IMG/VR virus record: IMGVR_UViG_2897328257_000002
DNA: 35,771 bases
Direction: 5' to 3' (one strand)
Source: a virus
Taxonomy: Duplodnaviria; Heunggongvirae; Uroviricota; Caudoviricetes
This document shows, piece after piece, positions 1-35,484 of this stretch. The first letter of the stretch is position 1, and each line of letters opens with the position of its first letter. The position numbers and the translations under genes are program-made. The notes under the pieces were generated by a model. That model was not told the origin of the DNA. It saw only the letters and a list, made by a program, of their open reading frames with translations, and searched no databases.

Positions 1-1044
1 TTAGCTGTTTGCTTCAAGGCTCGTTGCTTTAGTGGAAAGTGTGGCTAATGGATTGAAACGCAGTGCTGTTTCAAGGTGATCAGGGGCAAGATGTGCATAG
101 CGCATAGTCATTTTTATATCGTGGTGGCCCAGGATTTTTTGCAAAGCAAGAATGTTCCCGCCGGACATCATAAAATGTGCTGCGAACGTATGGCGTAGAA
201 CGTGGGTAAGTTGCCCGCGTGGTAGTACGATCGAGGTTCTATCCATCACGGCTAAAAACTGGAAGTAGCAGTCAGTAAATAATTTGAAGCCGTCTAGGGC
301 AACAATTTCCTCATACAGCTCTTTGCTGATCGGAATGCTGCGGTTTTTTTTGCCCTTAGTTCTGACAAATGTGATTCGGTATTTCGTGACCTGAGAACGT
401 GTCAGGTTCACAGCTTCGCGCCAACGTGCTCCGGTGCTCAAGCAGATTTTGACGACAAGAGCGAGCAGGGGGCTTTGGCGTTGACAGTCGAACAGAAGCT
501 CTGTGATTTGTTCATGTGTCAGCCAGGCCATTTCTTTTTCGGCAATGGTGAATTTACGCATGTTCTCCAGTGGATTTGGTGCTGTCCATTCACCGAGGCG
601 GGCTAACTCGCTAAAGACCCCACTCAGATAGCTTTGCTCCAGATTGATAGTTACCGGGCTGGCTCCTTTCTTCCATTTTTCGCTGAAGTAGATTTCACCC
701 GTCAGGCGCTTATCGCGATAGTGCGCGAACATTTTGGATGTTAGATCGGTGGCGAGGGGATTTCCGAGAGCATCGACCATCAGTATCAACTTGTCGTAAA
801 CATGCTCGCCAGCGGTCAGGGATTTGCCGTGCAGTTTGAACCAGAGTTCAACGATATCCTGTAGAGTTCGACGGTCTACCGATTCACCAAGCCAAGGCTT
901 AGCTTCTGCCTCCTCCATCGTGTGACGCTCAAAAGCTAATGCTTCGCCTTTGGTAGCGAACTGTTTACGCACGCGACGCCCGCTGCGTCCGGCGGGGTAA
1001 CATTCGCAAAGCCATTTCCCTGTGGTTAGTTTTCGTACTGCCAT
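1..1044 (-). CDS. int: Tyrosine integrase (P2/186-type phage integrase)
   Basis: Minus-strand ORF ending at TAA (1..3). First ATG is at 1042..1044 (product MAVRKLTTGKW...), so the 6-frame ORF 1..1200 is a 5' over-extension. C-terminal region LRHTFAAHFMMSGGNILALQKILGHHDIKMTMRYAHL fits the tyrosine recombinase catalytic core. Position at the prophage end next to the repressor gene. Confidence 0.9.
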   Translation of the reverse strand: MAVRKLTTGKWLCECYPAGRSGRRVRKQFATKGEALAFERHTMEEAEAKPWLGESVDRRTLQDIVELWFKLHGKSLTAGEHVYDKLILMVDALGNPLATDLTSKMFAHYRDKRLTGEIYFSEKWKKGASPVTINLEQSYLSGVFSELARLGEWTAPNPLENMRKFTIAEKEMAWLTHEQITELLFDCQRQSPLLALVVKICLSTGARWREAVNLTRSQVTKYRITFVRTKGKKNRSIPISKELYEEIVALDGFKLFTDCYFQFLAVMDRTSIVLPRGQLTHVLRHTFAAHFMMSGGNILALQKILGHHDIKMTMRYAHLAPDHLETALRFNPLATLSTKATSLEANS

Positions 1045-1232
1045 AAAAAATGCCCTCCAGTAGAGAGCATTTTCACTGTATGTATAACCAGTGTCAATGT
1101 ATGAAATCCTACGACCATACATCTCACTGAAGCCATAATTAAGTTGGCTATTCTTTTTGCTATGTGAGCATGTAATTTTTGCGGTTAACCTGCGGCTCAT
1201 TTTTATTTTAGGCGCAGATATAAAAGCAAAAG

Positions 1233-3763: not shown

Positions 3764-3997
3764 ATGCGTAATATTGAAACCCTCACGACTAAAACCGGAC
3801 CGGATGACGCAGGGCTTAATATTTTACTGACAGAGGCTCGTCTGGAAGAACGCCGGGCAAGGGCAGAAGCAATGGCAGCTCGCCTTGATAGCCTGGCGTG
3901 TCATATCACATCCCGCCAGCTAAACCACGTCGAAGCGGCAGAACTACTGCGTGTAACTGCTGAAGCAATCCAGAACGAAGCGCAGGAGATCCACTAA
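3764..3997 (+). CDS. Hypothetical early protein (77 aa)
   Basis: ATG at 3764 with AGGAG (3751..3755) 8 nt upstream; stop overlaps the start of the next gene. Confidence 0.55.
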   Translation: MRNIETLTTKTGPDDAGLNILLTEARLEERRARAEAMAARLDSLACHITSRQLNHVEAAELLRVTAEAIQNEAQEIH

Positions 3998-4224
3998 TGG
4001 CTGATGCAATGGATCTCGTACAGCAGCGCGTTGAAGAAGAACGCCAGCGCCATATTCGTGCTGCCCGTGCCAAAACACCGGGCGTGTCTCGCGTGCTTTG
4101 TATTGAATGTGAAGCGCCAATTCCGCCAGCACGACGCCGCGCCATTCCGGGAGTGCAGCTTTGCATTACCTGCCAGGAAATCGCAGAGCTGAAAGGCAAA
4201 CATTACAACGGAGGTGCTGTATGA
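3997..4224 (+). CDS. TraR/DksA-family C4 zinc-finger protein
   Basis: 75 aa with CIECEAPIP...(17 aa)...CITCQE, a four-cysteine finger at the C-terminus typical of phage TraR/DksA-like proteins. Stop overlaps the Dam start (ATGA). Confidence 0.75.
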   Translation: MADAMDLVQQRVEEERQRHIRAARAKTPGVSRVLCIECEAPIPPARRRAIPGVQLCITCQEIAELKGKHYNGGAV

Positions 4225-5078
4225 GCACCATCCTGAAATGGGCGGGAAATAAAACCGCCATTATGTCCGAACTGAAAAAACACCTTCCTGCTGGCCCGCG
4301 ACTGGTTGAACCTTTCGCGGGTTCCTGTGCTGTGATGATGGAGACGGATTACCCCAGCTATCTGGTTGCGGATATTAATCCTGATTTAATCAACCTCTAT
4401 AAAAAGGTTGCCGCTGATTGTGAATCGTTTATATCTCGCGCCAGAGTTTTATTTGAGATCGCAAACAGGGAGGTGGCTTATTACAACATAAGGCAGGAGT
4501 TTAATTACTCCACTGAAATTACTGATTTCATGAAAGCGGTATATTTCCTGTATCTCAATCGTCACGGTTACCGTGGTTTATGTCGCTATAACAAGAGCGG
4601 GCATTTCAACATTCCCTACGGTAATTATAAAAATCCGTATTTCCCTGAAAAAGAAATTCGCGCATTTGCAGAAAAGGCCCAGCGAGCAACGTTTATCTGC
4701 GCCAGCTTTGATGAAACGCAGGCGATGTTGAAGGCGGGGGATGTGGTGTATTGCGATCCGCCGTATGACGGTACGTTTTCCGGCTATCACACTGACGGCT
4801 TCACTGAAGATGACCAGTATCACCTGGCATCTGTTCTTGAACATCGGTCATCAGAAGGACATCCGGTCATTGTTTCTAACAGTGACACATCCCTGATCCG
4901 TTCGCTGTATCGCAATTTTACTCACCACTACATCAAGGCAAAACGCAGCATCGGTGTGGCAGCTGGCGAGGGTAAATCAGCAACAGAAATCATTGCTGTT
5001 TCCGGGCCGCGCTGCTGGGTGGGATTTGATTATTCGCGTGGCGTGGATAGTTCTGCCGTGTACGGAGTACGTGCATGA
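4221..5078 (+). CDS. DNA adenine (N6) methyltransferase, Dam/D12 class
   Basis: ATG at 4221 behind GGAGG (4211..4215). N-terminus [35 protein letters not shown] (AdoMet-binding FxGxG-like motif) and catalytic DPPY (CDPPYDG). Stop overlaps the gene A start. Confidence 0.85.
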
Positions 5079-9188: not shown

Positions 9189-9229
9189 ATGTCATGCAGG
9201 CGCATGAAAACCGCTACATAAAGCGGGCA

Positions 9230-9248
9230 GGCGTGGCGGGGATACGAT
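9230..9248. other. Probable cos site (cohesive-end sequence GGCGTGGCGGGGATACGAT)
   Basis: Matches the P2/186 cohesive-end 19-mers as recalled (GGCGAGGCGGGGAAAGCAC / GGCGTGGCGGGGAAAGCAT) in the first 13 nt, and is followed by TGCGCGCT as at the recalled P2 left end. Sits in a GC-normal intergenic stretch between A-side cargo and the Q/P packaging genes. Confidence 0.5.
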
Positions 9249-9316
9249 TGCGCGCTAGGTATAAGTGTGTAAAATAATTCCAAAATAAATCATCCTAATG
9301 AAGTGAGAGGGTAATA

Positions 9317-10966
9317 ATGTTAGTCAAGAAAAATAAAAATTATAGTTTATATTTTTTAATTACAAATAATCAACAGATATCTGATTCTGGTAATTATATA
9401 AAAATAGTCCCATCAAGAAGCGATTGGAATGATTTTGGATATTTGAGTAGAGTCGAAATATCTATTTTTAATAAAAAAGAGTGTAAGGATATAATTTCAC
9501 TGAATGGTTATATTGGTTTTTTGAATTCAGAGGAGGAACGAAATGGAAAAGCAGAACTGATAAGGCGAGTGAAGAAAAAGGAAGAATCTAATTTAAAGGA
9601 TGAGGGGTTTAATGATTATTTTGTCATGCTTCAGGATATGAATAATTATCGAAGACTAGTAAGATTTTTTGGGGTGAATGAATCCAAATATATATTAAAT
9701 TTCATTAATGATGTTGTTTCTAAGAAAAGTGACGCTAGTGCAGAGAATTTGAGGAAAAAAGCAATCTCTTCTGATATCTTTAATAAATCTTTCATTAGAG
9801 AGTCTGAGTCGTATTTTACTTTCAAAAATGCAGGAACAGTTCTTTCCGGTATTCAATATGAGGAGTTGGGTAATTTATCACAGCACATCAAGATTAGCTA
9901 TTCGAATAAAGTTAATGAAGAAGATGTATCTTATGTTTTTAATTTTGATCACGAGCATGATTTACCAAAAAGAATTTCCATAATTATAGGCGAGAATGGT
10001 GTAGGAAAAAGCCAAACGCTTAGAGAAATCGCATTGGCTGCGATTAAAGGAAAGGATAATTTGGTGGCTGTAGTTGATTCTAACGGTGTAAGCATTGAAG
10101 AACGAATTCAAATTAGTAGGCTCATTGCTTTTTCTCCAACAAATGAAAGTAAGTGTTCATTTCCAACCGATAAAAGAATAAAATCATTGATATGGTACAA
10201 AAGATTGACTTTAAATCGTGAATCAAAATCCAAATTAAACTTGAATGATTTAATAGTGCAACTAGCGAGGAGTAACGACGCTATCGGCTATAATCAAAGG
10301 TGGAATATATTTGTTGATGCACTGAGTGTTCTAAATAGTAACAACGATTTAGTAATCAAATGTAGCGGTGAAAATTCACCATTTGTTAAATTAAATGAGC
10401 TTAATTCTCGAGGCGAAGAATCCAGACTATCATTATATTCTGAAATTATTCTCTCTGGCGAGCCTTTGAGGCTTGTTGAAAATAAATGTTACCCTTTGAG
10501 TAGTGGGGAAATATCGTTTATTAAGTTTTGTGTACAAGTCTGTTTGTATATTGAGAATGGGACTCTTCTATTAATAGATGAGCCAGAAACACATCTCCAT
10601 CCTTCATTTATTAATAAATTTATGGCATTGCTTGATAATTTATTAGAAAAGACAGGCTCTTCAGCTATCATAGCAACGCATTCGGTTTATCTTGTTCGGG
10701 AGGTTTTTAAGGAGCAAGTGACAATACTCAGAAGACGAGATGATGGGGTAATTGTTAGCGAAAAACCGAGATTGAGTACTTTTGGGGCGAATATAGGAAA
10801 TATCTCATATTTTGTTTTCGGTGAGAGTGAACCAACTCAAATTTTAAATAAAGTAAAAAATAATATAATTGCAAAGAATATGTCTTGGGATGATGTTGAA
10901 TCTAAATATAGCGAGGACTTATCACTTAATGTATTAACTGCGTTGAGAAATGAAATAGGCAATTGA
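9317..10966 (+). CDS. ABC-type (AAA_15/AAA_21-like) ATPase with ~220-aa N-terminal extension; PtuA-like candidate defence ATPase
   Basis: 549 aa. Walker A GENGVGKS (~residue 225), signature-like LSSGE, Walker B/D-loop LLLIDEPETHLHP, H-loop IIATHS. N-terminal ~220 aa has no recognisable motif. Very AT-rich; stop is 1 nt before the next start. Confidence 0.75.
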   Translation: MLVKKNKNYSLYFLITNNQQISDSGNYIKIVPSRSDWNDFGYLSRVEISIFNKKECKDIISLNGYIGFLNSEEERNGKAELIRRVKKKEESNLKDEGFNDYFVMLQDMNNYRRLVRFFGVNESKYILNFINDVVSKKSDASAENLRKKAISSDIFNKSFIRESESYFTFKNAGTVLSGIQYEELGNLSQHIKISYSNKVNEEDVSYVFNFDHEHDLPKRISIIIGENGVGKSQTLREIALAAIKGKDNLVAVVDSNGVSIEERIQISRLIAFSPTNESKCSFPTDKRIKSLIWYKRLTLNRESKSKLNLNDLIVQLARSNDAIGYNQRWNIFVDALSVLNSNNDLVIKCSGENSPFVKLNELNSRGEESRLSLYSEIILSGEPLRLVENKCYPLSSGEISFIKFCVQVCLYIENGTLLLIDEPETHLHPSFINKFMALLDNLLEKTGSSAIIATHSVYLVREVFKEQVTILRRRDDGVIVSEKPRLSTFGANIGNISYFVFGESEPTQILNKVKNNIIAKNMSWDDVESKYSEDLSLNVLTALRNEIGN

Positions 10967-10967
10967 A

Positions 10968-11831
10968 ATGAATAAATTAAAAAGACCTGTTTTTAAAGAT
11001 TATTCTGCATTTAAAAAACTATCTGCAAATAAGAGATTAAAACATCATTCTGTTCTGAATGGACAGGATACATTTATACTTAATGCATATAGATCGTACA
11101 TAAAGAATAAAGGATATCTTAATGTCAATTCTTGTGGCGTATTGAGTAACAATATTGCTGAAGCTTTGAAATATTATTATAACAATCCCGCAAAGTGTTT
11201 ATCTATAATTGATGATATAAGAGCAGCTAATTCTAATTCTCTATGTCCAATGTGTGGTTCAATGCATAGCGGGACTTTGGATCATGTTTTACCCAAGGAA
11301 AACTATCCAGAATTTTCTTTATTCACTAAGAATTTGGTTCCTGCTTGCAAATGTAATACTTTCAAAAGTACTACTATAGCTAATTCTGCAGGCCATCGGA
11401 TGCTGCATCCATATTTTGATAATATATTAAAAAAAAGATTAATATGTGCTAATTTTTCTAAATTAGGGCGAACACCTACAATTGATGTAAAAATCATAAT
11501 TGACCCAATGTCACCAGAATATAACAATGTTAAGTATCATCTTGATAATGTTGTTATCAAGAATAATATTAAGGGGTATTTGTCTGAACAATGGGAGTCG
11601 TTTTACTTATATCCTGAGCTTGTTATTAGAGGACTGAATAAGAGTCTTTCTACTTATAGCGATGTATATGAGTTGTTGACTCGCGAGTTGTTGCTGTTGG
11701 ATGAAAAACATAAAGGTAAAAATAATTGGAATTCGGTTTTTGTAGCTGGGTTAATTCGACCTGATGTGATTAGGTGGATACTCTGTGAATTACATTTAGG
11801 TAACAGAAGTCCAGACGGTCGTCTCATATGA
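10968..11831 (+). CDS. HNH endonuclease-domain protein; PtuB-like candidate defence nuclease
   Basis: 287 aa with CPMCGSMHSGTLDHVLPKENYP...NLVPACKCN...H...LHPYF, an HNH core with cysteine zinc-binding pairs. Translationally coupled to the upstream ATPase. Confidence 0.7.
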   Translation: MNKLKRPVFKDYSAFKKLSANKRLKHHSVLNGQDTFILNAYRSYIKNKGYLNVNSCGVLSNNIAEALKYYYNNPAKCLSIIDDIRAANSNSLCPMCGSMHSGTLDHVLPKENYPEFSLFTKNLVPACKCNTFKSTTIANSAGHRMLHPYFDNILKKRLICANFSKLGRTPTIDVKIIIDPMSPEYNNVKYHLDNVVIKNNIKGYLSEQWESFYLYPELVIRGLNKSLSTYSDVYELLTRELLLLDEKHKGKNNWNSVFVAGLIRPDVIRWILCELHLGNRSPDGRLI

Positions 11832-11841
11832 TTTTTTGCAT

Positions 11842-11867
11842 CTTCAGCGTGTATCTGCACGCTGAAG
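11842..11867. other. Perfect 10-bp inverted repeat (CTTCAGCGTG - TATCTG - CACGCTGAAG) between the HNH gene and the Q stop
   Basis: Seen directly; T-run lies on the 5' side on the plus strand, so not a canonical terminator for either flanking gene. Possible cassette boundary or protein-binding site. Confidence 0.4.
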
Positions 11868-11938
11868 AAATTCATAAAAACTGCTGGCTATTAATAACTT
11901 TTTTTAGTTGTGTTAAAGAACCTCATTTAGTTATTACG

Positions 11939-12970
11939 TTAAGTAGCTAGTTTATAACTATCAAATTTAACAATGTTCTCACTTACCAATTTATTTATTT
12001 CCATCATTCTTTTTTGTAACGGTATTAACTCGTTACGTACAAACACCAGGCTCGCCTTCTCCACATCCCCAAACCCCCCGACATTATTAGGCATAATCCC
12101 CATCATTTGCGGTGGCACACGATGCGCCGCCATCATGTCATCCCGGCTCACGTTCTTGATGTTCAGAAACTCATCCTTCGCCGCGACTTCTGACAACGGG
12201 ATGATCTGAAGCCCGTCCTTTTTGCCGTTAGGCGAGTACATAAACAGATTGCGGAAGTTACCTGGTCCTTTGGCGCTTTTCATCGCATTGCGGAGGTTGT
12301 TCACATCCTCCTGGTTTTGCGCGGCATCGGTCATGTACATGATGAAGCCTGCATGACTGCCGTTAATGTAATACTTTCGGCGGAACAGCGTGGCGGACTC
12401 GTTGAGCAGGGCTGACGGAATGGCAGAAAGGTAACCTGGCAGGCCGTAGATCTCCTGGTTGATGTCCGGTTCCATCAGATGAAAAATGCTGCCTTTCGTG
12501 AACTGATACGGCTGGGTTGTCATACCGTATTGCACAAACCAGTAGGTATCCAGGTCTAACCCGCGTCGGGTGTATTTTGCCAGAGCAGGCTCAAGAGCGA
12601 TGACCTCTCCGAACCGGTTTGTGCGTTTCTCCAGGTAAGCGTTACCAAATACCAGATAATCCTGCACAAAACGTGAAAAAGCCTGCTGGCTGAGCAGCGG
12701 GTGAGGGATGTAGGTACTGGTCAGAATGTTGCACTTTACTGCAATCGGGGAGCTATGATGTACGGCAGCGCGGAAGGTTCGCGCCAGTCCGTCAAAACTC
12801 ACTGGCGGCTCATACCAGCGATCTGTCTGTACGCATTCCACATAGTCCAGTAGTTCACGGCGGTCCAGAACCGGAACGGGATCGCCGAAGCTGAATGCTT
12901 CGGCTGAAGCCTGGTTTTTATGCTGGATCTGTTTCGTCGACGCAGCGCGGTTTTTCTTACTCTTTCCCAT
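11939..12970 (-). CDS. Q: Portal protein (P2 gpQ family)
   Basis: 343 aa from ATG 12968..12970; start overlaps the P stop (TGATG); size and order (Q downstream of P, both leftward) as in P2. Confidence 0.9.
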   Translation of the reverse strand: MGKSKKNRAASTKQIQHKNQASAEAFSFGDPVPVLDRRELLDYVECVQTDRWYEPPVSFDGLARTFRAAVHHSSPIAVKCNILTSTYIPHPLLSQQAFSRFVQDYLVFGNAYLEKRTNRFGEVIALEPALAKYTRRGLDLDTYWFVQYGMTTQPYQFTKGSIFHLMEPDINQEIYGLPGYLSAIPSALLNESATLFRRKYYINGSHAGFIMYMTDAAQNQEDVNNLRNAMKSAKGPGNFRNLFMYSPNGKKDGLQIIPLSEVAAKDEFLNIKNVSRDDMMAAHRVPPQMMGIMPNNVGGFGDVEKASLVFVRNELIPLQKRMMEINKLVSENIVKFDSYKLAT

Positions 12971-18423: not shown

Positions 18424-18916
18424 ACGCTGCCTTGTCGGGGGCGTGCTGGCTATTGCTGCCACGCTGCCGGGTTTTCAGCAGCTTCACACCTCCGTGGAGG
18501 GGCTGAAACTGATTGCCGATTACGAAGGCTGTCGTCTGCAGCCGTATCAGTGCAGCGCGGGTGTCTGGACCGACGGCATTGGTAATACATCGGGCGTCAT
18601 TCCCGGCAAAACAATCACGGAACGACAGGCAGCAGAAGGGCTGATCTCCAACGTGCTGCGTGTGGAGCGGGCACTGGAAAGGTGTGTGAAGCAACAGCCA
18701 CCACAGAAGGTGTATGACGCTACGGTGTCGTTTGCCTTCAACGTGGGGACGGGCAATGCCTGTAGTTCCACGCTGGTGAAATTGCTCAATCAGCGGCGCT
18801 GGGCGGATGCGTGCCGACAGTTGCCGCGCTGGGTTTATGTAAAAGGTGCGTTTAATCAGGGGCTGGATAACCGCCGTGCGCGGGAGATGGCTTGGTGTTT
18901 ACAGGGAGCAAACTGA
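18404..18916 (+). CDS. Endolysin, lysozyme-type with N-terminal signal-anchor-release (SAR) segment
   Basis: 170 aa; Gly/Ala-rich weakly hydrophobic N-terminus CLVGGVLAIAATLPG followed by a lysozyme-like E...D...T region (VEGLKLIADYEGCRLQPY...WTDGIGNT). GGGAGG RBS. Confidence 0.8.
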   Translation: MNPSIVKRCLVGGVLAIAATLPGFQQLHTSVEGLKLIADYEGCRLQPYQCSAGVWTDGIGNTSGVIPGKTITERQAAEGLISNVLRVERALERCVKQQPPQKVYDATVSFAFNVGTGNACSSTLVKLLNQRRWADACRQLPRWVYVKGAFNQGLDNRRAREMAWCLQGAN

Positions 18917-18917
18917 A

Positions 18918-19295
18918 ATGAAAAAGAAATTAATCAGCGGACTGTTTCTGATGTTATGGATGGCGCTGTTAGTCGCAGCAATGGTGTATCCGCAGGGGAT
19001 TTTTCCGGTACTGGCAGCGTCCGGCGTTTGGGTAGCCTGTTTGCTGACATGGGCGGTAATTCCTGTAGCACTGGCTGCGTTAATTAAGAATGGCCCGCTC
19101 TGGCAGGAGTTAAGGGCATCTTTGCTGAAGACAATTACCCGAAAAGAAAACGTATTTATCACCTGGGTGATGCGATTGCTGATTGTTGTAAGTCTCGCTT
19201 GGACGGGGTGGGCTATTACCCTGGTCTTTTATCTACTGACCGTTATTGCCTTCTGGATCACCCGTAATCAGATGGCGCAACAGGTAGCAGCATGA
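18918..19295 (+). CDS. lysA: LysA-like membrane protein (lysis timing, 4 predicted TM helices)
   Basis: ATG at 18918 right after the endolysin stop; 125 aa, strongly hydrophobic; position as P2 lysA. Confidence 0.65.
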   Translation: MKKKLISGLFLMLWMALLVAAMVYPQGIFPVLAASGVWVACLLTWAVIPVALAALIKNGPLWQELRASLLKTITRKENVFITWVMRLLIVVSLAWTGWAITLVFYLLTVIAFWITRNQMAQQVAA

Positions 19296-19720
19296 ACCGG
19301 TTGCTGCTGGTTGTGCTGGCGTTATTACTGGCGGCGCTGGGCTGGCAGACGTGGCGGCTGGCTGATGCCAGCCAGACCATTAGCACGCAGGCAGACGAGC
19401 TGCAGAGCAAAAGCCAGGCACTGGCAAAGAGCAACAGCCAGCTTATCAGCCTGTCCATTCTGACTGAAACCAATAACCGGGAGCAGGCGCGGCTCTATGC
19501 CGAAGCAGAACAGACCAGCGCGCTGCTGAGACAACGACAACACCGGATCGAGGAACTGAAACGTGAGAACGAGGATTTACGCCGCTGGGCTGATACTCCT
19601 TTGCCTGCTGACATTATCCGGCTGCGGGAACGTCCGACGCTCACCGGAGGTGCAGCTTACCGTCAGTGGTTGTCCGCGAGTGACGCCGTGTCGGCTGGAT
19701 CAGGCAGCGCCGCGCACTAA
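19292..19720 (+). CDS. lysB: LysB (Rz-like inner-membrane spanin)
   Basis: 142 aa, N-terminal TM segment then coiled-coil-like region; follows lysA as in P2. Confidence 0.7.
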   Translation: MNRLLLVVLALLLAALGWQTWRLADASQTISTQADELQSKSQALAKSNSQLISLSILTETNNREQARLYAEAEQTSALLRQRQHRIEELKRENEDLRRWADTPLPADIIRLRERPTLTGGAAYRQWLSASDAVSAGSGSAAH

Positions 19721-20697: not shown

Positions 20698-21228
20698 TTA
20701 CGCACTTAATAAACTTAAATAACTTTTTATGCTTTGGCAAAAAGGGAAAAGGTCTATTTTAATTTTCCAGTTTTTTTTGTTTTGAACCCCAGAAGCAATA
20801 ATAGAACCATCCCAATATTTTATTCCATTTTTGCCGGTCTTTTTTGTTAACTCAAAACTTAATGCGTGAATAATTTTATTGCAGCATTCGCGTATAGAAC
20901 CTTTAACATGACCATCTATAACAAAAAGTATATTTTCATGTTCTTCAAATGCTTCTTTCTCAGGTGAGTAATCTGGGTTCCACTCATGTTCACTAGTGTC
21001 TTGGAGAATTCGTAGTTTTGTACAAAGGCTAATAAGATTGTTGCTAATGGTATATTCCAACCATCCGTTGTACGATAACTCCTCCATTTCAAATTCAGTT
21101 ACTATAGAATCATCATATACTTTCTGTGTGGAATATATACGCTGTAAATAAAATTCAGATGAACAGCATAATTGCTCAATTATTCTTGCGTGTTCTTCTA
21201 TAGCGTAATAATCAATTGGATGGCTCAT
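20698..21228 (-). CDS. Hypothetical protein (176 aa) in AT-rich moron between S and V (P2 orf30 position)
   Basis: ATG at 21226..21228 (product MSHPIDYYAIEEHARIIEQL...); opposite strand to the flanking late genes; no recognised motif. Confidence 0.6.
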   Translation of the reverse strand: MSHPIDYYAIEEHARIIEQLCCSSEFYLQRIYSTQKVYDDSIVTEFEMEELSYNGWLEYTISNNLISLCTKLRILQDTSEHEWNPDYSPEKEAFEEHENILFVIDGHVKGSIRECCNKIIHALSFELTKKTGKNGIKYWDGSIIASGVQNKKNWKIKIDLFPFCQSIKSYLSLLSA

Positions 21229-21259
21229 TCTTTTACCTTTCTTCGATTGGAATTGTATT

Positions 21260-21277
21260 TGTGTCATTTACCACACA
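21260..21277. promoter_or_regulatory. Late-promoter activator dyad TGT-N12-ACA (TGTGTCATTTACCACACA) upstream of V
   Basis: Exact dyad in the 95-bp intergenic region between the moron start and the V start. Confidence 0.5.
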
Positions 21278-23153: not shown

Positions 23154-23751
23154 TCTGCTGCCACCGGGTTCAACACCACTGGAGCGCCGACTGGCGCAAA
23201 CCTGCAGCGGGATTTCTGATCTGCAGGTGCCGCTTCGTGACTTGTGGAATCCGGCAACCTGTCCGGTCAGTTTCCTGCCTTATCTCGCCTGGGCGTTCTC
23301 TGTAGATCGCTGGGACGAGGGCTGGACAGAAAGCGTCAAGCGCCAGGTGGTGAAGGATGCTTTTTATATTCATCAGCATAAAGGGACCACCAGTGCCGTG
23401 CGGCGGGTGGTGGAGCCGTTCGGCTTTCTGATCCGCATTATTGAGTGGTGGCAGACCGGAGAGGCACCGGGCACGTTTCGCCTGGATATCGGCGTGCAGG
23501 ACCAGGGTATCACTGAAGATACCTATCTGGAACTTGAGCGACTGATAAGCGATGCCAAACCATGTAGCCGCCACATGATCGGCATGTCCATCAATCTGCA
23601 GACCAGCGGCCCGCATTGGGTGGGAGCCGCCAGCTATCTTGGCGAAGAAATCACGATCTATCCGTATATCAACGAAACGATTATTTCCGGTGGCACCGCG
23701 CATGAAGGCGGGGCGGTCCATGTTATTGACACAATGAGAGTGAATCCATGA
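23146..23751 (+). CDS. I: Baseplate/tail protein I (P2 gpI family)
   Basis: 201 aa; overlaps the J stop and the H start. Confidence 0.8.
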   Translation: MNSLLPPGSTPLERRLAQTCSGISDLQVPLRDLWNPATCPVSFLPYLAWAFSVDRWDEGWTESVKRQVVKDAFYIHQHKGTTSAVRRVVEPFGFLIRIIEWWQTGEAPGTFRLDIGVQDQGITEDTYLELERLISDAKPCSRHMIGMSINLQTSGPHWVGAASYLGEEITIYPYINETIISGGTAHEGGAVHVIDTMRVNP

Positions 23752-24804
23752 GCACAAAATTTTATACCCTGCTGACGGATATTGGCGCGGCGAAACTTGC
23801 CAGCGCCGCCGCGCTCGGTGTGCCGCTAAAAATTACCCATATGGCGGTGGGCGATGGCGGCGGAGTATTGCCAACGCCGGACGCAAAGCAGACGGCACTG
23901 GTAAATGAGAAACGCCGGGCTGCGCTGAATATGCTTTATATCGACCCGCAGAACAGCAGCCAGATTATTGCTGAACAGGTGATCCCTGAAAACGAGGGCG
24001 GTTGGTGGATACGTGAAGTGGGCCTGTTTGATGAGTCCGGGGCATTGATTGCCGTGGGCAACTGCCCGGAAAGCTATAAGCCGCAACTGGCTGAAGGCAG
24101 CGGGCGCACCCAGACCGTGCGCATGGTGCTGATTACCAGCAGTACGGACAATATCACCCTGAAAATCGACCCTGCTGTAGTGCTGGCAACCCGCAAGTAT
24201 GTGGATGACAAGGCACTGGAGCTGAAGGTGTACGTGGATGACCTGATGGCAAAACATCTTGCCGCACCGGACCCGCATTCACAGTATGCACCCAAAGAAA
24301 GTCCGACGTTTACCGGAACCCCCAAAGCGCCAACGCCAGCGGCGGGGAATAATACCACGCAGCTTGCGACCACCGCATTTGTTCAGGCGGCACTGACGGC
24401 TCTTATTAATGGTGCGCCAGCCACGCTGGACACGCTGAAAGAAATAGCCGTAGCCATTAACAATGATCCGAAATTCAGTACCACCATTAACAATGCGCTG
24501 GCACTGAAAGCGCCGCTGTCGAGTCCGGCACTCACCGGAACGCCAACAGCTCCCACGGCGGCGCAGTCGGTCAACAATACACAGATTGCCACTACGGCTT
24601 TTGTGAAATCGGCGATTGCAGGAATGGTGGGTTCTGCACCTGCGGCCCTAGATACACTGAACGAACTGGCGGCGGCGCTGGGGAATGATCCGAACTTTGC
24701 CACGACAATGCTTAATGCGCTGGCAGGTAAACAACCGCTGGACAATACGCTGACTAATTTGAGTGGAAAGGATGTAGCTGGTCTTCTCGCATACCTTGGT
24801 TTGG
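23748..24804 (+). CDS. H: Tail fibre protein H, N-terminal (constant) part only; 3' end truncated by the assembly gap
   Basis: N-terminus MSTKFYTLLTDIGAAKLASAA...MAVGDGGG...ESYKPQLAEGSGRTQTVRMVLITS matches the recalled P2 gpH N-terminal region. Reading frame runs into the N-run at 24805. Confidence 0.85.
24312..24755 (+). repeat. Two tandem ~74-aa tail-fibre repeats within H (TGTPxAPT...NNTQxATTAFV...APAxLDTLxExAxAxxNDPxFxTT)
   Basis: Visible in the H translation (residues ~189-262 and ~263-336). Confidence 0.5.
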
Positions 24805-24815
24805 NNNNNNNNNNN
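24805..24815. other. Assembly gap (11 N)
   Basis: Run of N in the sequence; interrupts the tail-fibre region exactly where an invertible segment is expected. Confidence 0.99.
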
Positions 24816-24980
24816 ACGAATAAACTCACCACGTAAATCAGGCAATTTATTTGTCGGATAAGCCTTTGCCAGTTCCGGGTATTCTTCAGCAGAAAAAGCT
24901 GCACCGTTGCATTTCAGCCAGCCTGTCGGCGGAGTGGCTGAAGGCCATGGAACAGGTACACCAACAGGTAATGCCGAACC
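24816..24980 (-). CDS. 5' fragment of an alternative tail-fibre variable (C-terminal) segment in inverted orientation; remainder lost in the gap
   Basis: Minus-strand translation ...SALPVGVPVPWPSATPPTGWLKCNGAAFSAEEYPELAKAYPTNKLPDLRGEFIR carries the PWPS...YP.LA.AYP...PD.RG motif recalled from variable tail-fibre ends of the Mu S / P1 S / P2 H type. Lies just inside the candidate inversion site next to the invertase gene. Confidence 0.5.
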
Positions 24981-25006
24981 TTCTCCCAAACCAACGTTTA
25001 AGAAAA
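24981..25006. promoter_or_regulatory. Candidate Hin/Gin-type inversion crossover site (TTCTCCCAAACCAACGTTTAAGAAAA)
   Basis: 26-bp imperfect palindrome with AAACC-AA-(G)GTTT core resembling recalled hix/gix sites; located between the variable fibre fragment and the invertase gene. Confidence 0.45.
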
Positions 25007-25061
25007 TGCAGCGATTACGGCTAACTGGCATCATCCCCGGTTTTTATTCAGGGGGATGATC

Positions 25062-25628
25062 ATGCTTATTGGCTATGTACGCGTGTCAACAAATGACCAG
25101 AACACCGATTTGCAACGTAATGCACTGAACTGCGCGGGATGTGAGCGGATTTTTGAGGATAAAATCAGTGGCACTAAGTCCGACAGACCAGGGTTGAAAA
25201 AACTGCTCAGGACACTATCGGCAGGAGACACGCTGGTTGTCTGGAAGCTGGACAGGTTGGGGCGCAGTATGCGGCATCTTGTTACGCTGATAGAAGAGTT
25301 GCGTCAGCGAGGCGTGAATTTCCGAAGCCTGACTGACAGTATTGATACCAGCACCCCAATGGGCCGTTTCTTTTTTCATGTCATGGGTGCCCTGGCTGAA
25401 ATGGAACGCGAACTGATAGTTGAACGTACCAGGGCAGGGCTGGCTGCAGCTCGTGCCAAAGGCAGAGTAGGTGGACGCCGTCCTAAGTTGACCACCGAAC
25501 AGTGGGCACAGATTGGGCGTTTACTCGAGGCCGGAGAATCAAGACAGCGTATTGCACTGATTTTTGATGTAGGCGTTTCTACCATTTATAGAAAATTTCC
25601 GGCAAATAAGAGCAATGAATCTCCCTGA
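25062..25628 (+). CDS. Serine-recombinase DNA invertase (Gin/Hin/Pin/Cin family)
   Basis: MLIGYVRVSTNDQNTDLQRNAL... with catalytic serine context VRVSTNDQ and C-terminal HTH (VGVSTIYRKF); essentially collinear with recalled Gin. ATG at 25062 behind GGGGG; an alternative ATG at 25056 is in frame. Confidence 0.9.
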   Translation: MLIGYVRVSTNDQNTDLQRNALNCAGCERIFEDKISGTKSDRPGLKKLLRTLSAGDTLVVWKLDRLGRSMRHLVTLIEELRQRGVNFRSLTDSIDTSTPMGRFFFHVMGALAEMERELIVERTRAGLAAARAKGRVGGRRPKLTTEQWAQIGRLLEAGESRQRIALIFDVGVSTIYRKFPANKSNESP

Positions 25629-25769: not shown

Positions 25770-26942
25770 ATGGCTCAGGATTACCACCACGGGGTGCGCG
25801 TTGTTGAAGTCAACGAAGGCACCCGATCCATTACCACGGTGAGCACCGCCATCGTGGGTATGGTCTGCACGGGCGATGATGCCGATGCAAAAATGTTTCC
25901 TCTTAATAAACCCGTGCTGATCACTGATGTGCTGACTGCCAGCGGTAAAGCGGGTGAGTCCGGTACGCTGGCCCGTTCGCTGGACGCCATCGCTGACCAG
26001 GCAAAACCCGTGACCGTTGTTGTGCGTGTGCCGCAGGGTGAAACGGAAGAAGAAACCACGACCAATATCATCGGCGCAGTGACTGCTGAAGGTAAAAAAA
26101 CAGGCATGAAAGCCCTGTTATCTGCCCAGTCACAGCTCGGCGTTAAACCGCGCATTCTCGGCGTGCCAGGTCACGACACGAAGGCGGTAGCTACTGAGTT
26201 GCTGAGCGTGGCGCAAAGCCTGCGTGGGTTTGCTTACCTGTCAGCGTATGGTTGCAAGACGGTGCAGGAAGCAATCACTTACCGTGAAAACTTCAGTCAG
26301 CGTGAAGGAATGCTGATCTGGCCCGACTTTACTGGCTGGGACACGGTGCTGAATGCCGAAGCAACGGCTTATGCCACCGCCCGTGCGCTCGGTCTGCGCG
26401 CCAAAATTGATGAGCAGACCGGATGGCACAAAAGCCTGTCCAACGTGGGCGTGAACGGTGTCACCGGAATTTCTGCTGATGTGTTCTGGGATCTGCAGGA
26501 CCCGGCAACCGATGCAGGTCTGCTGAACCAGAACGACGTCACCACGCTTGTGCGCAAGGATGGTTTCCGCTTCTGGGGTTCCCGCTGTCTGAGCGATGAT
26601 CCGCTTTTTGCTTTCGAAAACTACACCCGCACGGCGCAGGTGCTGACGGACACGATGGCAGAAGCACACATGTGGGCGGTGGACAAACCGCTGAACCCGT
26701 CGCTGGCCCGCGACATTATCGAAGGTATCCGCGCCAAAATGCGCAGCCTGGTCAGTCAGGGCTATCTCATTGGTGGTGATTGCTGGCTGGACGAGTCGGT
26801 GAACGACAAAGACACGCTTAAAGCCGGAAAACTCACCATCGACTACGACTACACGCCAGTGCCGCCACTTGAAAATCTGATGCTGCGCCAGCGCATCACC
26901 GATCAGTACCTGGTGAATTTCGCCAGCCAGGTCAGCGCGTAA
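25770..26942 (+). CDS. FI: Contractile tail sheath protein (P2 gpFI family)
   Basis: 390 aa; AGGAGG RBS; order FI-FII-E-T-U-D as in P2. Confidence 0.9.
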
Positions 26943-27958: not shown

Positions 27959-30900
27959 TAATAACCTGCGCCTGCAGGTCATTCTTAATGCGGTTGACAA
28001 ACTCACCCGCCCATTCCGTGCTGCACAGGCCAGTTCGAAAGAGCTGGCTGGCGCAATCAGAAACTCCCGTGACGCATTAAAGCAACTCAATCAGGCGGGT
28101 AACAGCTTGGAAAAATTTCGCAAGCTGCAGGCCGATAACAAGAAGTTAGGCGACAGGCTGAACTATGCCAGACAGAAGGCAAATTTGCTTAGTTCTGAGC
28201 TGGAAGCGATGGAACAACCATCACAACGGCACCTTGTGGCTTTAGGTCGGCAAACGCTGGCAGTCCAACGCCTGGAAGAACAACAAAAATATTTGCAGAA
28301 GCAAACGGCGCTTGTGCGTGCAGAACTGTACCGGACGGGAATTTCTGCGAAAGATGATGCGGGAGCAACTGCCCGTTTAGCCCGTGAAACATCACGTTAT
28401 AACTAGGAATTGTCGAAACAGGAGGCGCGGCTGAAGCGACTGGGTGAAGCTCAGCGCAGGATGAATGCGGCGCGTGCCAGTTATGCCCGTTCGCTGGAGG
28501 TGCGCGATCGTATTGCAGGAGCCGGAGCCACTACCACGGCTGCAGGGCTGGCAATGGGGACGCCAGTGATGGCGGCAGTAAAAAGCTATACCAGCATGGA
28601 AGATGCCATGAAAGGTGTGGCAAAACAGGTCAATGGTCTGCGTGACGATAATGGAAACCGTACTGCACGTTTTTATGAAATGCAGGATGCCATCAAGGCT
28701 GCCAGCGAACAGTTGCCGATGGAAAACGGTGCGGTGGACTTCGCTGCACTGGTTGAAGGTGGTGCGCGCATGAACGTCGCAGACCCTGACGACAGCTGGG
28801 AAGACCAGAAACGTGACCTGCTGGCCTTCGCCAGTACGGCAGCAAAGGCGGCAACAGCCTTTGAGCTGCCAGCGGATGAACTGTCAGAAAGTCTGGGGAA
28901 AATCGCCCAGCTCTACAAAATACCTACCCGCAATATTGAACAGCTCGGCGATGCGCTGAACTATCTGGATGATAACGCCATGTCGAAAGGGGCGGACATC
29001 ATTGATGTGATGCAACGTCTGGGCGGTGTGGCTGACCGTCTGGATTATAGTAAAGCGGCGGCACTGGGTTCCACCTTTCTGACACTGGGCGCTGCGCCGG
29101 AGGTTGCAGCCAGTGCAGCAAACGCGATGGTGCGTGAATTGTCCATTGCCACCATGCAAAGCAAGAGTTTCTTTGAAGGGATGAATCTGCTGAAACTCAA
29201 TCCTGAAGTGATTGAAAAGCAGATGACGAAGGATGCGATGGGAACTATCCAGCGTGTGCTGGAGAAGGTGAACGCACTGCCGCAGGACAAGCGTCTGTCT
29301 GCCATGACCATGTTGTTTGGTAAAGAGTTTGGCGATGACGCGGCGAAACTGGCAAACAACCTGCCGGAACTACAGCGCCAGCTAAAACTGACAGCGGGCA
29401 ATGATGCGCTCGGTTCCATGCAGAAAGAATCCGACATCAACAAGGACTCACTTTCTGCTCAGTGGTTGCTGGTTAAAACCGGAGCGCAGAATACCTTCAG
29501 CAGCCTGGGCGAAACGCTGCGCCAGCCGCTGATGGATATTCTGTACACGGTGAAAAGCGTTACGGGAGCGTTGCGTCGCTGGGTGGAAGCTAACCCGGAA
29601 CTGACGGGCACACTGATGAAAGTAGCCGCTATTGTGGCTGCGGTTACCGTAGGCCTCGGCACCTTGGCTGTGGCGCTGGCTGCAGTGCTGGGGCCGCTGG
29701 CAGTCATCCGTCTGGGATTCTCTGTGCTGGGCATCAAAACGTTACCTTCCGTTACGGCAGCAGTAACACGAACTAGCAGCGCGTTGTCCTGGCTGGCTGG
29801 CGCTCCACTGGCAGTGCTGCGACGCGGGCTTGCTTCATCGGGTAACGCAGCGGGTTTACTTACTGCGCCGTTGTCGTCTTTGCGCCGTACGGCATCACTG
29901 ACGGGAAATGTCCTGAAAACTGTAGCAGGTGCGCCGGTTGCACTATTGCGGTCTGGATTATCCGCTTTACATGCTGTTGCTGTGATGTTTATGAATCCTC
30001 TGGCGGTACTGCGCGGTGGACTGGCTGCCGTAGGCGCGGTGCTTCGTGTGCTTGCATCTGGTCCGCTGGCGATGCTGCGCGTTGCCCTGTATGCCATATC
30101 TGGTCTGTTAGGTGCTCTGCTCAGTCCGATAGGTCTTGTGGTTACTGCACTGGCGGGCGTGGCGCTGGTTGTCTGGAAATACTGGCAACCCATCACCGCA
30201 TTTCTCGGTGGCGTGGTGGAAGGATTCAAAGCGGCGGCAGGTCCCATCAGTGCTGCATTCGAACCACTTAAGCCTGTGTTTCAGTGGATTGGCGACAAAG
30301 TACAGGCGCTGTGGGGCTGGTTTACTGATCTGCTGACGCCCGTTAAGTCGACCTCTGCCGAACTGCAGAGTGCAGCGGCAATGGGGCGGCGATTCGGGGA
30401 GGCACTGGCGGAAGGGCTGAATATGGTCATGCATCCGCTGGACTCCCTGAAATCCGGCGTTTCCTGGTTGCTGGAGAAGCTCGGCATTGTCAGTAAAGAG
30501 GCCGCAAAGGCAAAACTGCCGGAAAGCGTGACGCGTCAGCAACCTGCGACGGTGAATGCAGACGGTAAAGTGATGATGCCATCGGGTGGTTTTCCATCAT
30601 GGGGATATGGCTTTGCGGGGATGTATGACAGCGGCGGGTATATCCCGCGCGGGCAGTTTGGCATCGTCGGTGAAAACGGGCCGGAAATTGTTAACGGCCC
30701 GGCAAATGTGACCAGCCGGAGAAATACAGCTGCACTGGCTGCCGTTGTTGCCGGAATGATGGGCGTTGCTGCCGCGCCTGCAGAGCTTCCACCGTTGCAT
30801 CCTTTGGCACTTCCCGCGAAAGGCGGCGAAGCGATGATGAGTCGTGCAGCCACTGTGCCGCCCGTTCACCGGATTGAGGCACCGACGCAGATCATCATTC

Positions 30901-33151: not shown

Positions 33152-34837
33152 TTATCCTAATCCTGGCCATACCATGACGATGATTGTCCCTGCCAGCGTC
33201 AGCAGGACGTTGGCGATTGCGTAGGTGCCCGCATAGCCCAGCGCAGGGATGTTACTGCGAGCTGTATCACTGATGATCTCCATTGCCGGCGCGCAGGTGC
33301 GTGCGCCCATCATTGCGCCGAACAACAGTGCGCGGTTCATTCGCAATACATAAGCACCGAACAAGAAACAGATAACCACGGGCACAAGACTGACAATTAA
33401 TCCGGCAATCAACATCTGACCGCCAATCGCGCCCAGGCCGTTATTAATACCGCTACCGGCGCTCAGACCAACGCCTGCCATAAACACCATCAAGCCGAAC
33501 TCTTTCACCATGCTTAATGCACCTTGCGGAATGTAACCGAAGGTCGGGTGGTTAGCACGCATAAAGCCCAGCATAATTCCGGCGAATAACAACCCGGCAG
33601 CGTTCCCCATGCCGAAACTGAATGTGCTGAACTGGAAGGTGATCATCCCGATCATCAGCCCAATAACAAAGAAGGCGCAAAATGCCAGCAGGTCAGTGAC
33701 CTGGCTGTGAATCGAGATAAAGCCGATGCGATCGGCGATGGTTTTTACGCGACGGGCATCACCGCTGACTTGTAAAACGTCACCTTTGTTAAGCACGACG
33801 TTGTCATCTATCGGCATCTCAATCTGGCTACGAATGACGCGGTTAAGGAAGCAACCGTGATCGGTCAACTTCAGTTGTGCGAGACGTTTACCTACAGCGT
33901 TATGGTTTTTAACGACCACTTCTTCAGTGACGATACGCATGTCGAGAAGGTCACGATCGAAAACTTCTTTACCGTTACGGAAGCTGGGATCGAGTCGGGC
34001 ATGGGCGTCGGGATAGCCTACCAACGCTATTTCATCGCCCATTTGTAGCACGGCATCACCGTCTGGATTTGCCAGAATCCCGTTACGTCGAATACGTTCA
34101 ATGTAGCAGCCGGTTTGTCGATAAATACCCAGTTCACGCAGATTTTTGCCGTCGGTCCAGGCCACCAGCTCCGGGCCGACGCGATAGGCGCGGATCACCG
34201 GTAAATAAACCTTACGGTTGGCATCAGTGTCCAGGCCACGTTCGCGGGCGATTTGCTGGGCGCTGGTCTGTAAGTCCTGATGCTGCAATTTCGGCAAGTA
34301 ACGCGCACCAACAATCAAACTCACCAGACCGATTAAATAGGTTAAGGCATACCCGAGGCTCAGATTATCCAGTGCCAGTGAGAGCTGCCTGCTTTCCATG
34401 CCGGAATGACGCAGTGTATCGCCAGCACCGACCAGAACCGGTGTCGACGTCATAGAGCCTGCTAACATACCGGCCGTCAGGCCAATATCCCAGCCAAACA
34501 GCTTACCTAACCCTAAGGCGATCACCAGCGCACTGCCAACCATCACCAGTGCTAACATTAGGTAATTTTTCCCATCGCGAAAAAAAATGGAAAAAAAGTT
34601 CGGTCCGGCTTCGACCCCGACGCAGAAAATAAACAGCATAAAGCCAAGATTAAGCGCATCGGTGTTAATGCTGAAATGTTGTTGGCCTAATAACAGCGAT
34701 ACGACTAAAACGCCAATGGAATTACCCAGTTGGATCGAACCAAGTCGTAACTTTCCGAGACATAGCCCAAGCGCGAGGACCACAAATAATAACAGAATGT
34801 AATTCCCATTTAACAATTCGGCGACGTTTATATTCAC
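33152..34837 (-). CDS. ybjL: Host putative transporter YbjL (AAE-family membrane protein with two TrkA-C domains)
   Basis: 561 aa, [51 protein letters not shown]..., recognised as E. coli YbjL; normal host GC content. Confidence 0.9.
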
Positions 34838-35106
34838 GGAGGCTAACTTCTTGTTTACTAGTAAGCTGTTGAAAGAAATGGTAATTTACGATAATGTTTT
34901 TTACCAGAATTCAGGGCGCAGATTCATTCAGCGCACCTAAACGATAGTAAAGTAACAATATATTTTACTAGTGTAATCACATTAGGTATCAACGGCTATA
35001 TGAATTGCGTTGGCCTATATTAGCATGGAATGCGAAGCGGCTTTATCTTACTGAACGCCACACTGGCGAAAAATGTGTTCGATAGACGCAGTGTCAGGAG
35101 GAACGA

Positions 35107-35484
35107 GTGAAACATAAACAACGTTGGGCGGGGGCAATCTGCTGTTTTGTCCTCTTCATTGTGGTGTGCCTTTTTCTGGCGACGCACATGAAAGGCGCTT
35201 TTCGGGCTGCCGGGCATCCTGAAATCGGCTTGCTATTTTTCATTCTTCCTGGAGCAGTGGCCAGCTTCTTTTCACAGCGTAGAGAAGTCCTGAAACCTCT
35301 GTTTGGCGCAATGCTGGCGGCACCCTGTTCGATGCTCATTATGCGGCTGTTTTTTTCACCGACGCGCTCATTCTGGCAAGAGCTGGCATGGTTACTAAGC
35401 GCGGTGTTCTGGTGTGCGCTGGGGGCACTGTGTTTCTTATTTATCAGTAGTTTGTTTAAACCACAGCACAGAAAAAATCAGTAA
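35107..35484 (+). CDS. ybjM: Host inner-membrane protein YbjM
   Basis: 125 aa hydrophobic protein MKHKQRWAGAICCFVLFIVVCLFLATHMKG...; position between ybjL and grxA as in E. coli. Confidence 0.85.
   Translation: MKHKQRWAGAICCFVLFIVVCLFLATHMKGAFRAAGHPEIGLLFFILPGAVASFFSQRREVLKPLFGAMLAAPCSMLIMRLFFSPTRSFWQELAWLLSAVFWCALGALCFLFISSLFKPQHRKNQ

Follow-up and report, generated by a model that had tools for sequence, protein, structure and literature searches.

Organisation of the locus

This study concerns a tail-fibre locus in the IMG/VR virus record IMGVR_UViG_2897328257_000002, a stretch of 35,771 nt that is referred to below, at its full length, as the window. On the plus strand the locus comprises, from left to right, the 5' part of a P2-type tail-fibre gene, most of one recombination site, an assembly gap of 11 N, a minus-strand fragment of a second fibre tip, a complete 26-bp recombination site and the gene of a serine DNA invertase. 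Very probably, positions 24784-25628 represent the two outer ends of a Gin/Pin-type invertible fibre segment, the interior of which is hidden by the 11 N.

What is left of the fibre gene (23748-24804, plus strand, 352 codons) corresponds to the constant 5' part (Sc) of a P2 H-type fibre gene and is cut by the gap. Its N-terminus represents the tail-collar fibre N-terminal domain Phage_tail_fib (PF12571, E 7e-65), and its assignment as H follows from its placement after the homologs of P2 V, W, J and I. This constant part is 99.7% identical to H of the Escherichia coli isolates OkiPb01698 and OkiPb01682, and 99.9% identical to that of E. coli MS20657. The gap interrupting the gene lies at 24805-24815.

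Directly after it, at 24816-24980 on the minus strand, are located the site-proximal 55 codons of an alternative tip (Sv') with a Collar domain, in the unexpressed orientation, hereafter called parked. Translation of the minus strand from 25006 to 24816 gives ...FLNVGLGEGSALPVGVPVPW...LPDLRGEFIR, a fragment of the Phage Tail Collar domain (PF07484, E 2e-16), which is 100% identical to its counterpart in OkiPb01698; its stretch 24816-24899 is moreover an exact 84-nt match to stfE of the e14 element of E. coli K-12. Translation probably does not begin at the ATG at 25034, and the parked segment would be read only once it has been fused to H.

The preliminary description of this DNA, made from its letters without database searches, had H halting at the gap, the start of an alternative fibre following on the minus strand, and the assembly gene together with the remaining variable segments missing. 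All of this was borne out: the open reading frame (ORF) starting at 23748 enters the N-run at exactly 24805-24815, the fragment after it is of Collar type, and no homolog of a tail-fibre assembly gene was detected anywhere in the window (tblastn, best E 0.81), while intact relatives possess the full set.

Crossover sites

The right crossover site is complete and occupies 24981-25006 (26 bp, TTCTCCCAAACCAACGTTTAAGAAAA), precisely where a hix/gix-like site had been proposed. A single nucleotide separates it from the right-hand site of e14, it shares 17 of 26 positions with Mu gixR (counted by hand), and it recurs unchanged in L260 (the OkiPb01698 locus; loci of relatives are cited by such numbers), in L261 and in locus L034 of the enteropathogenic E. 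coli (EPEC) strain E2348/69. As for the left site, the earlier suggestion was to seek it in the 3' region of H after resolution of the gap; it does lie there, and it is visible already, since its first 21 of 26 bp (TTCTCGCATACCTTGGTTTGG) stand at 24784-24804, abut the gap and form an inverted repeat with 24986-25006. The last 5 bp, lost in the gap, are GAGAA in all relatives, and the full left site TTCTCGCATACCTTGGTTTGGGAGAA was found at the homologous position in L001, L003, L004, L006, L007, L260 and L261.

In the whole 35.8 kb the core shared by both sites, TTCTCNNAWACCWWSGTTT, is present at two places only, 24784 and 24981, where shuffled sequences would give 0.00 occurrences. The central dinucleotides, TT in the left site and AA in the right one, are complementary. 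The locus therefore shows two inverted, imperfectly palindromic 26-bp sites with matching central dinucleotides, as is typical for the invertase group discussed below, with 21 of the 26 bp of the left site visible.

The DNA invertase

The gene at 25062-25628 (plus strand) specifies a DNA invertase that falls into the Gin/Pin/Hin/Cin group of small serine recombinases and whose 188 aa lie within the range of about 185-195 aa usual for such enzymes. The Gin/Hin-family invertase of the preliminary description thus proved to be intact, with Resolvase (PF00239, E 2e-53) and HTH_7 (PF02796, E 1.5e-15, residues 140-183) domains; its start is most likely 25062 and not 25056, in line with the annotation of 188 aa from that position in all relatives. 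Residues 1-184 could be aligned with the Mu Gin structures 3UJ3 and 4M6F (E 8e-93), and the DNA-binding domain of Hin (1HCR) also matched the protein (E 7e-9). The gene is 100% identical in DNA sequence to that of OkiPb01682, and the protein is about 97-98% identical to those of other relatives, 83.5% to PinE of e14, about 76% to the invertases of two EPEC P2-like loci and 71.5% to Mu Gin. The exact protein recurs in 9,692 indexed blocks of the assembly collection, which makes it part of a very common element.

Both catalytic residues, S9 and R42 in Gin numbering (S10 and R43 in Hin), are present, and so are six residues contacting Fis and the enhancer (K46, K47, R50, Q150, R153 and L154, Gin numbering). 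These six are conserved in Fis/enhancer-dependent invertases and not in resolvases, corresponding in Hin to K47, K/R48 and K/R51 of helix B and to Q151, R154 and L155 of helix 1 of the DNA-binding domain (McLean et al., PMC3798978). On these features the protein is a member of the Gin/Pin/Hin/Cin group that would drive a fibre switch of the G-segment type, and none of the tests performed contradicted this membership.

Inversion of the segment in closely related genomes

The flanks of the gap match the phage Cartapus and many closed E. coli chromosomes, in which 1.3-1.5 kb of extra DNA is present between them. All intact relatives have the same arrangement: the constant part of H, the left site, a variable part (Sv) with its assembly gene, an opposed assembly gene with the second variable part (Sv'), the right site, the invertase gene and the sheath gene.

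Within this lineage, inversion is demonstrated by comparison of near-identical closed genomes. OkiPb01698 (NZ_AP042585.1, 959233-962776) and its sister isolate OkiPb01682 (NZ_AP042512.1, 958233-961776) agree without a mismatch in both flanks, each compared over 2,332 nt. The intervening 1,865 nt run in opposite directions in the two genomes at 99.95% identity (one mismatch), with the ends of the reversed block falling inside both 26-bp sites. A second pair, MS20657 and Cartapus, exhibits a 1,539-nt block reversed at 99.7%, between colinear flanks of just about 96% identity. Furthermore, both states are encountered among the relatives: in L002, L005, L006, L007 and L012 the Collar cassette lies parked next to the invertase, and in L010, L013 and L261 it is fused to H. 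In OkiPb01682 the fusion of H and Collar is annotated as one tail-collar fibre protein of 513 aa.

The window itself was flipped in silico by joining its left flank, the GAGAA and the reverse complement of the fragment after the gap. The resulting junction is in frame (...LAYLGLGEGSALPVGVPVPW...). Four closed genomes contain it at 99.8% identity along its full 575 nt, under the annotation of a tail-collar fibre protein. The segment presumably flips in the window's own strain as well.

Content of the gap

The best proxy for the hidden DNA was picked by searching with the junction sequence of the window itself. The junction in the state found in the window (24816-25390) is 100.0% identical in E. 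coli OkiPb01698, and the two sequences agree at 99.7% to the left of the gap and at 99.3% to the right. The edges of the gap map to positions 2326 and 4001 of the OkiPb01698 locus, so that 11 N replace 1,674 nt; other relatives with the same Collar cassette give similar estimates, e.g. 1,500 nt in L002. The interior of OkiPb01698 completes an H of 465 aa, which is followed by an assembly protein of 147 aa, an opposed tfaE-like assembly protein of 200 aa and a Collar-type tip. By this proxy, the missing DNA would comprise the rest of the expressed tip, two assembly genes and most of the parked tip. One of the two tips is predicted to be gp53-like and the other of Collar type; since the Collar tip is parked beside the invertase in the window, the gp53-like one would be expressed there.

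Proposed mechanism

Gin, Hin and Pin act as dimers on their two sites: together with a Fis-bound enhancer these dimers form a synapse, the DNA is cleaved at the central dinucleotide of each site, and rotation and religation follow. Likewise, the 188-aa invertase would bind the two inverted 26-bp sites of the window, cut at the central TT/AA and, after rotation and religation, flip the segment between them, the TT/AA dinucleotides being compatible after the inversion. The constant part of H ends inside the left site (...LAYLGLGE), and for this reason each flip would fuse H in frame to one of two C-terminal tips, gp53-like or Collar-type. As each tip is expected to be followed by its own assembly chaperone gene, a flip would swap both the tip and the chaperone gene read from the H promoter. 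The predicted outcome is a mixed phage population with two receptor specificities. By analogy with the well-characterised invertases, the reaction would depend on Fis and an enhancer, and by analogy with Mu, P1 and e14 the inversion would switch the host range, as proposed previously.

Cause of the assembly break

The break in the assembly is causally tied to the inversion module, because a random break would fall in a 26-bp site of this window with a probability of about 7e-4 (26 / 35,771). Two causes that sequence alone does not separate come into question, a mixture of orientations and a collapse of repeats. We cautiously favour coexisting orientations in the sequenced culture as a main cause; a collapse of dispersed repeats is at least a co-cause, for which the right edge of the gap, lying in the exact 84-nt repeat of e14 stfE, argues.

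The evidence for the mixture of orientations comes from the ends of other contigs and from published cultures. In an IMG/VR sample with 126 occurrences of the left 21-mer, 19 contigs (15%) truly end within 30 nt past it and 0 within 30 nt before it. Of these 19 independent draft contigs, 11 stop at base 26, the last of the left site (...GGTTTGGGAGAA), and another 3 at base 27. The two orientation states first diverge at base 28, and the ends are hence located where a branch of the assembly graph is expected. Several of these contigs, about 20-28 kb long, fit the prophage arm from the integrase to the site. Contig ends at the left site are therefore a systematic assembly break at this phage switch. 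Loci of the collection ending at or near the left site are L037, L041, L080, L081, L095, L110, L116, L136, L140, L144 and L148, among others.

That both orientations coexist in cultures grown from single colonies was established by whole-genome sequencing and polymerase chain reaction (Goldberg et al. 2014, PMC4272514), with ratios of 51:49 in e14 and 60:40 in a Mu prophage; P2-like prophage loci gave 90:10, 49:51 and 93:7. The repeat cores of the loci studied there match those of the window, and the right site of one of them is identical.

Several observations weigh against the reading given above, some of them against the module as such and others against a break caused purely by orientation. 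No convincing enhancer, expected as two Fis sites in cis within the 5' end of the gene, was recognised in the window's invertase gene in a scan for G-N13-C pairs at 48-bp spacing, nor was one in Mu gin, where the sole match had a weak A/T core; the scan was accordingly without power, and the signature residues of the protein were used instead. The 5' coding DNA of the invertase aligns with Mu gin throughout. A scan for sigma-70-like promoters and terminators around the invertase gene yielded nothing above the shuffled background. With regard to the break, the left contig stops at base 21 of the site and not at bases 26-28, as a pure orientation branch would have it. The right contig does not stop at the right site but about 165 nt farther towards the interior of the segment, its last 84 nt being the exact e14 stfE match, and an IMG/VR contig of a paralogous module starts just 6 nt from this break; both findings point to repeat collapse. 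Finally, the inner edge of the right site is the end point of only 2 of 140 contigs in IMG/VR, which is unlike the result of a symmetric orientation mix. It should be added that the latter test required the whole site and that short contigs of the invertase arm may be under-sampled in a viral collection.

Some of these points are at the same time the strength of the principal alternative, according to which the module is as described above and the assembly was broken by putative dispersed repeats shared with other modules of the same genome, not by its orientations. We hold this explanation possible rather than probable. Candidate repeats are the e14-like Collar block of stfE, the assembly genes and paralogous invertases. 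Besides the 84-nt match and the paralogous contig, it draws on the 40-mer at the right edge, whose exact matches among species-representative genomes are confined to e14 copies in three chromosomes (84% identical elements) and a contig of 234 nt, on the e14 homology of relatives, which stops just about 30 nt past the break, and on the number of places matching the region in E. coli genomes (median 2, up to 15); the paucity of invertase-side contigs stopping at the right site fits it too. The left edge speaks against it: the last base of the left contig lies within the crossover site, and exact identity to the left-site region of e14 amounts there to just 12 nt (ACCTTGGTTTGG); furthermore, the ends in IMG/VR lie 1-2 nt from the point of orientation divergence, whereas a dispersed repeat would produce ends about k bases in. 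The earlier proposal that mixed orientations broke the assembly is plausible. It agrees with the recurrent left-site breaks and the published mixtures, and falls short at the right edge with its e14 repeat.

Another candidate cause, long identical inverted repeats, was rejected for the known relatives, whose exact repeats measure just 15-25 nt. With respect to base 21, we conjecture that the 11 N consist of a 1-N placeholder flanked on either side by 5 N standing for trimmed bases, in which case the left contig would originally have ended at base 26. Under this 5+1+5 N scheme its end would coincide with the modal end in IMG/VR.

For practical purposes, the parts of such prophages that drop out of short-read assemblies are precisely the receptor-binding tips and the chaperone genes, and predictions of host range or receptor from draft prophages are therefore systematically blind at this locus. 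An N-run beside a tail-fibre gene and an invertase should accordingly be read as hidden cassettes, and not as a truncated fibre.

Alternative interpretations of the gap

The preferred reading, a plain two-site module with its interior hidden, was further weighed against three alternatives. Firstly, the gap might hold a three-site or larger module with at least three tips, or an insertion sequence. Precedents do exist, such as the EPEC locus L033 with three sites and 215-bp repeats over the same Collar block, the 3.4-kb segment of L004 and the transposase genes inside the segment of L012, and a more complex graph is harder to assemble. The closest closed genomes, OkiPb01698 and OkiPb01682 (flanks 99.3-100%, junction 100%), nevertheless have a plain two-site module of 1,886 nt, and we consider a larger module quite unlikely. 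There is, by the same token, only a small chance that the interior is a shufflon-like multi-site array or a previously unseen receptor-binding cassette. If it were, the prophage would have more than two host-range states, and the complexity of the graph would explain the failure of both edges.

The unusual loci just cited deserve a few details. In L012 (E. coli CP002970) the transposase genes (HTH_Tnp_1, HTH_21/rve) are situated at 3846-4645, inside the invertible segment, and the segment of L004 (2538-5945) encodes tips of 359 and 366 aa without Pfam match.

Secondly, the module could be a fossil whose sites and enzyme look intact although the segment has ceased to flip or the prophage has become defective, and the gap could be a technical accident due to low coverage or a scaffolding artefact. 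The lack of an enhancer and promoter recognisable by sequence would be in line with this, and degraded modules exist (e.g. L031 and the remnant EPEC locus L034). Such an explanation is hardly likely for a locus with a full-length invertase that has all catalytic and signature residues and is shared, as an identical protein, by the thousands of blocks mentioned above. Moreover, both sites match relatives found in both orientations, colinearity with Cartapus extends along the entire prophage, and the low probability of a chance break inside the site holds here as well.

As regards L031 (positions 9458-10221; E. coli PCP06235, NZ_CM129869.1, a chromosome-level whole-genome shotgun assembly), the module looks damaged. 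In place of the second assembly gene and the parked tip it has a hypothetical ORF of 138 nt and a 72-nt tail-protein fragment bearing the label 'partial in the middle of a contig'; this could be a misassembly of the region or a product of real decay.

Thirdly, a real deletion, in which 11 N is close to the true distance and the left site is joined to the interior of the parked tip, is barely credible: the nominal gap length of 11 is the single point in its favour, and against it stand edges on opposite coding strands, a head-to-head fusion that neither a site-specific nor a homologous event predicts, the lack of such a junction in about 30 relative loci examined in detail, and the coincidence of both edges with recurrent assembly break points.

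Comparison with known systems

Tail-fibre inversion of the Gin/Pin type has been understood since the 1980s. The module described here belongs to a type that is already known, being annotated in Cartapus and measured in P2-like prophages of E. coli, and it adds nothing new in biological terms.

The prophages of OkiPb01698 and OkiPb01682 represent the same element: their flanks are 99.3-100% identical, the sites agree, and the module is likewise placed between H and the sheath gene. The same applies to Cartapus, with flanks about 97% identical, in the annotation of which a 'DNA-invertase, Mu phage Gin invertase homolog' is accompanied by two opposed pairs of fibre and assembly genes. In distinction from the window, where the parked cassette is of Collar type, Cartapus has two gp53-like cassettes, and the window differs from all three by the absence of the 1.67-kb interior.

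Among the classical systems, the closest is the Pin/P segment of e14 (stfP/tfaP - tfaE/stfE - pinE) in E. coli K-12, which has the same gene order. Its stfE Collar block is 92-98% identical, including the 84 nt matched exactly. Whereas the window carries an apparently complete P2-type prophage with an H-type fibre, e14 is what remains of a lambdoid prophage, is defective and has an stfE that has become a pseudogene.

The architecture and logic of the Gin/G segment of Mu (Sc-[Sv U / U' S'v]-gin) are identical, with the junction of constant and variable parts placed inside the fibre gene. In the locus studied here, the constant part likewise ends in the left site and would be fused in frame to either tip; of the two opposed tips, each with an assembly gene, the window shows 55 codons of one. 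Differences lie in the phage family, Mu being transposable and the prophage studied here P2-like, in the size of the segment (about 3 kb for G, about 1.9 kb in this locus), in the sequences of the sites and in the fibre proteins, which lack homology along most of their length. The Cin/C segment of P1 shares the logic of tail-fibre switching.

EPEC E2348/69 contains two P2-like prophages with invertible tips adjacent to invertase genes, in which both orientations were shown experimentally (PMC4272514). The likeness is greatest in L034, whose right site does not differ from that of the window and whose copy of the Collar fragment is 95% identical. The EPEC invertases differ in being just about 76% identical to that of the window; moreover, three sites, giving four variants, are present in one of the loci, and only a remnant without the constant part of H is left of the other. 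The Hin/H segment of Salmonella and the Cin/C segment of P1 belong to the same Fis/enhancer-dependent subclass, and the signature residues defined in Hin are all present in the window's invertase; Hin, though, flips a promoter for flagellin genes and not a fibre-tip cassette.

Prophage context

Judged by gene order and colinearity, the window contains a complete integrated Cartapus-like prophage (P2 family, Peduoviridae, genus Elveevirus) in an E. coli-like host. The genes flanking the inversion module are homologs of P2 V, W, J, I, H, FI, FII, E, T, U and D, in the order kept from P2, and the window is colinear with Cartapus, a classified member of the genus. At the nucleotide level, alignment with Cartapus extends over 2421-32828 at 92.8-97.6% identity, except for the stretches 9198-12008, 18898-19302 and 28125-28492, which do not align. 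Downstream of the invertase, at 25770-26942 on the plus strand, follows the tail sheath gene, a homolog of P2 FI with the Pfam domains Phage_sheath_1, Phage_sheath_1C and Gp18_domIII_N; it is colinear with gp24 of Cartapus and places the inversion module between H and FI.

The right-hand end of the window (33152-35484) encodes a 561-aa Asp-Al_Ex/TrkA_C permease (YbjL-like, minus strand) and YbjM; from this ybjL-like/ybjM flank, the right end of the prophage was placed between about 32916 and 33152, and its host was taken to be E. coli-like. At the opposite end, the window starts with the stop codon of the integrase gene (1-1200, minus strand), the DNA of which gave just one short match to Cartapus, 71% identical, suggesting a different attachment site.

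Between the tail completion gene S and the baseplate gene V, an ORF of 189 aa (20698-21267, minus strand) gave no match in Pfam and PADLOC. It is conserved across the phage group, as gp14 in Cartapus and with 176 aa in LF82, and relatives carry alternative cargo at this spot, namely DUF6216 or an SMC_N/AAA_21 ATPase. The exact protein was seen on only 14 tiny contigs; since the gene is conserved in Elveevirus, its consideration as rare cargo was dropped. The patch at 28125-28492 is a local variable one, with both sides aligned to Cartapus at 94-97%, and covers ORFs upstream of the tape-measure gene and the start of that gene.

Furthermore, a cos-proximal island, which has no counterpart in Cartapus, carries two adjacent genes at 9317-11831 (plus strand). 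The first encodes an AAA_21/AAA_15 ATPase of 549 aa, matching component A of the PADLOC candidate system PDC-M01 (E 2e-55), and the second a protein of 287 aa matching component B (E 1e-33). By these matches, the gene pair is probably anti-phage cargo carried by the prophage at a known variable hotspot of P2.

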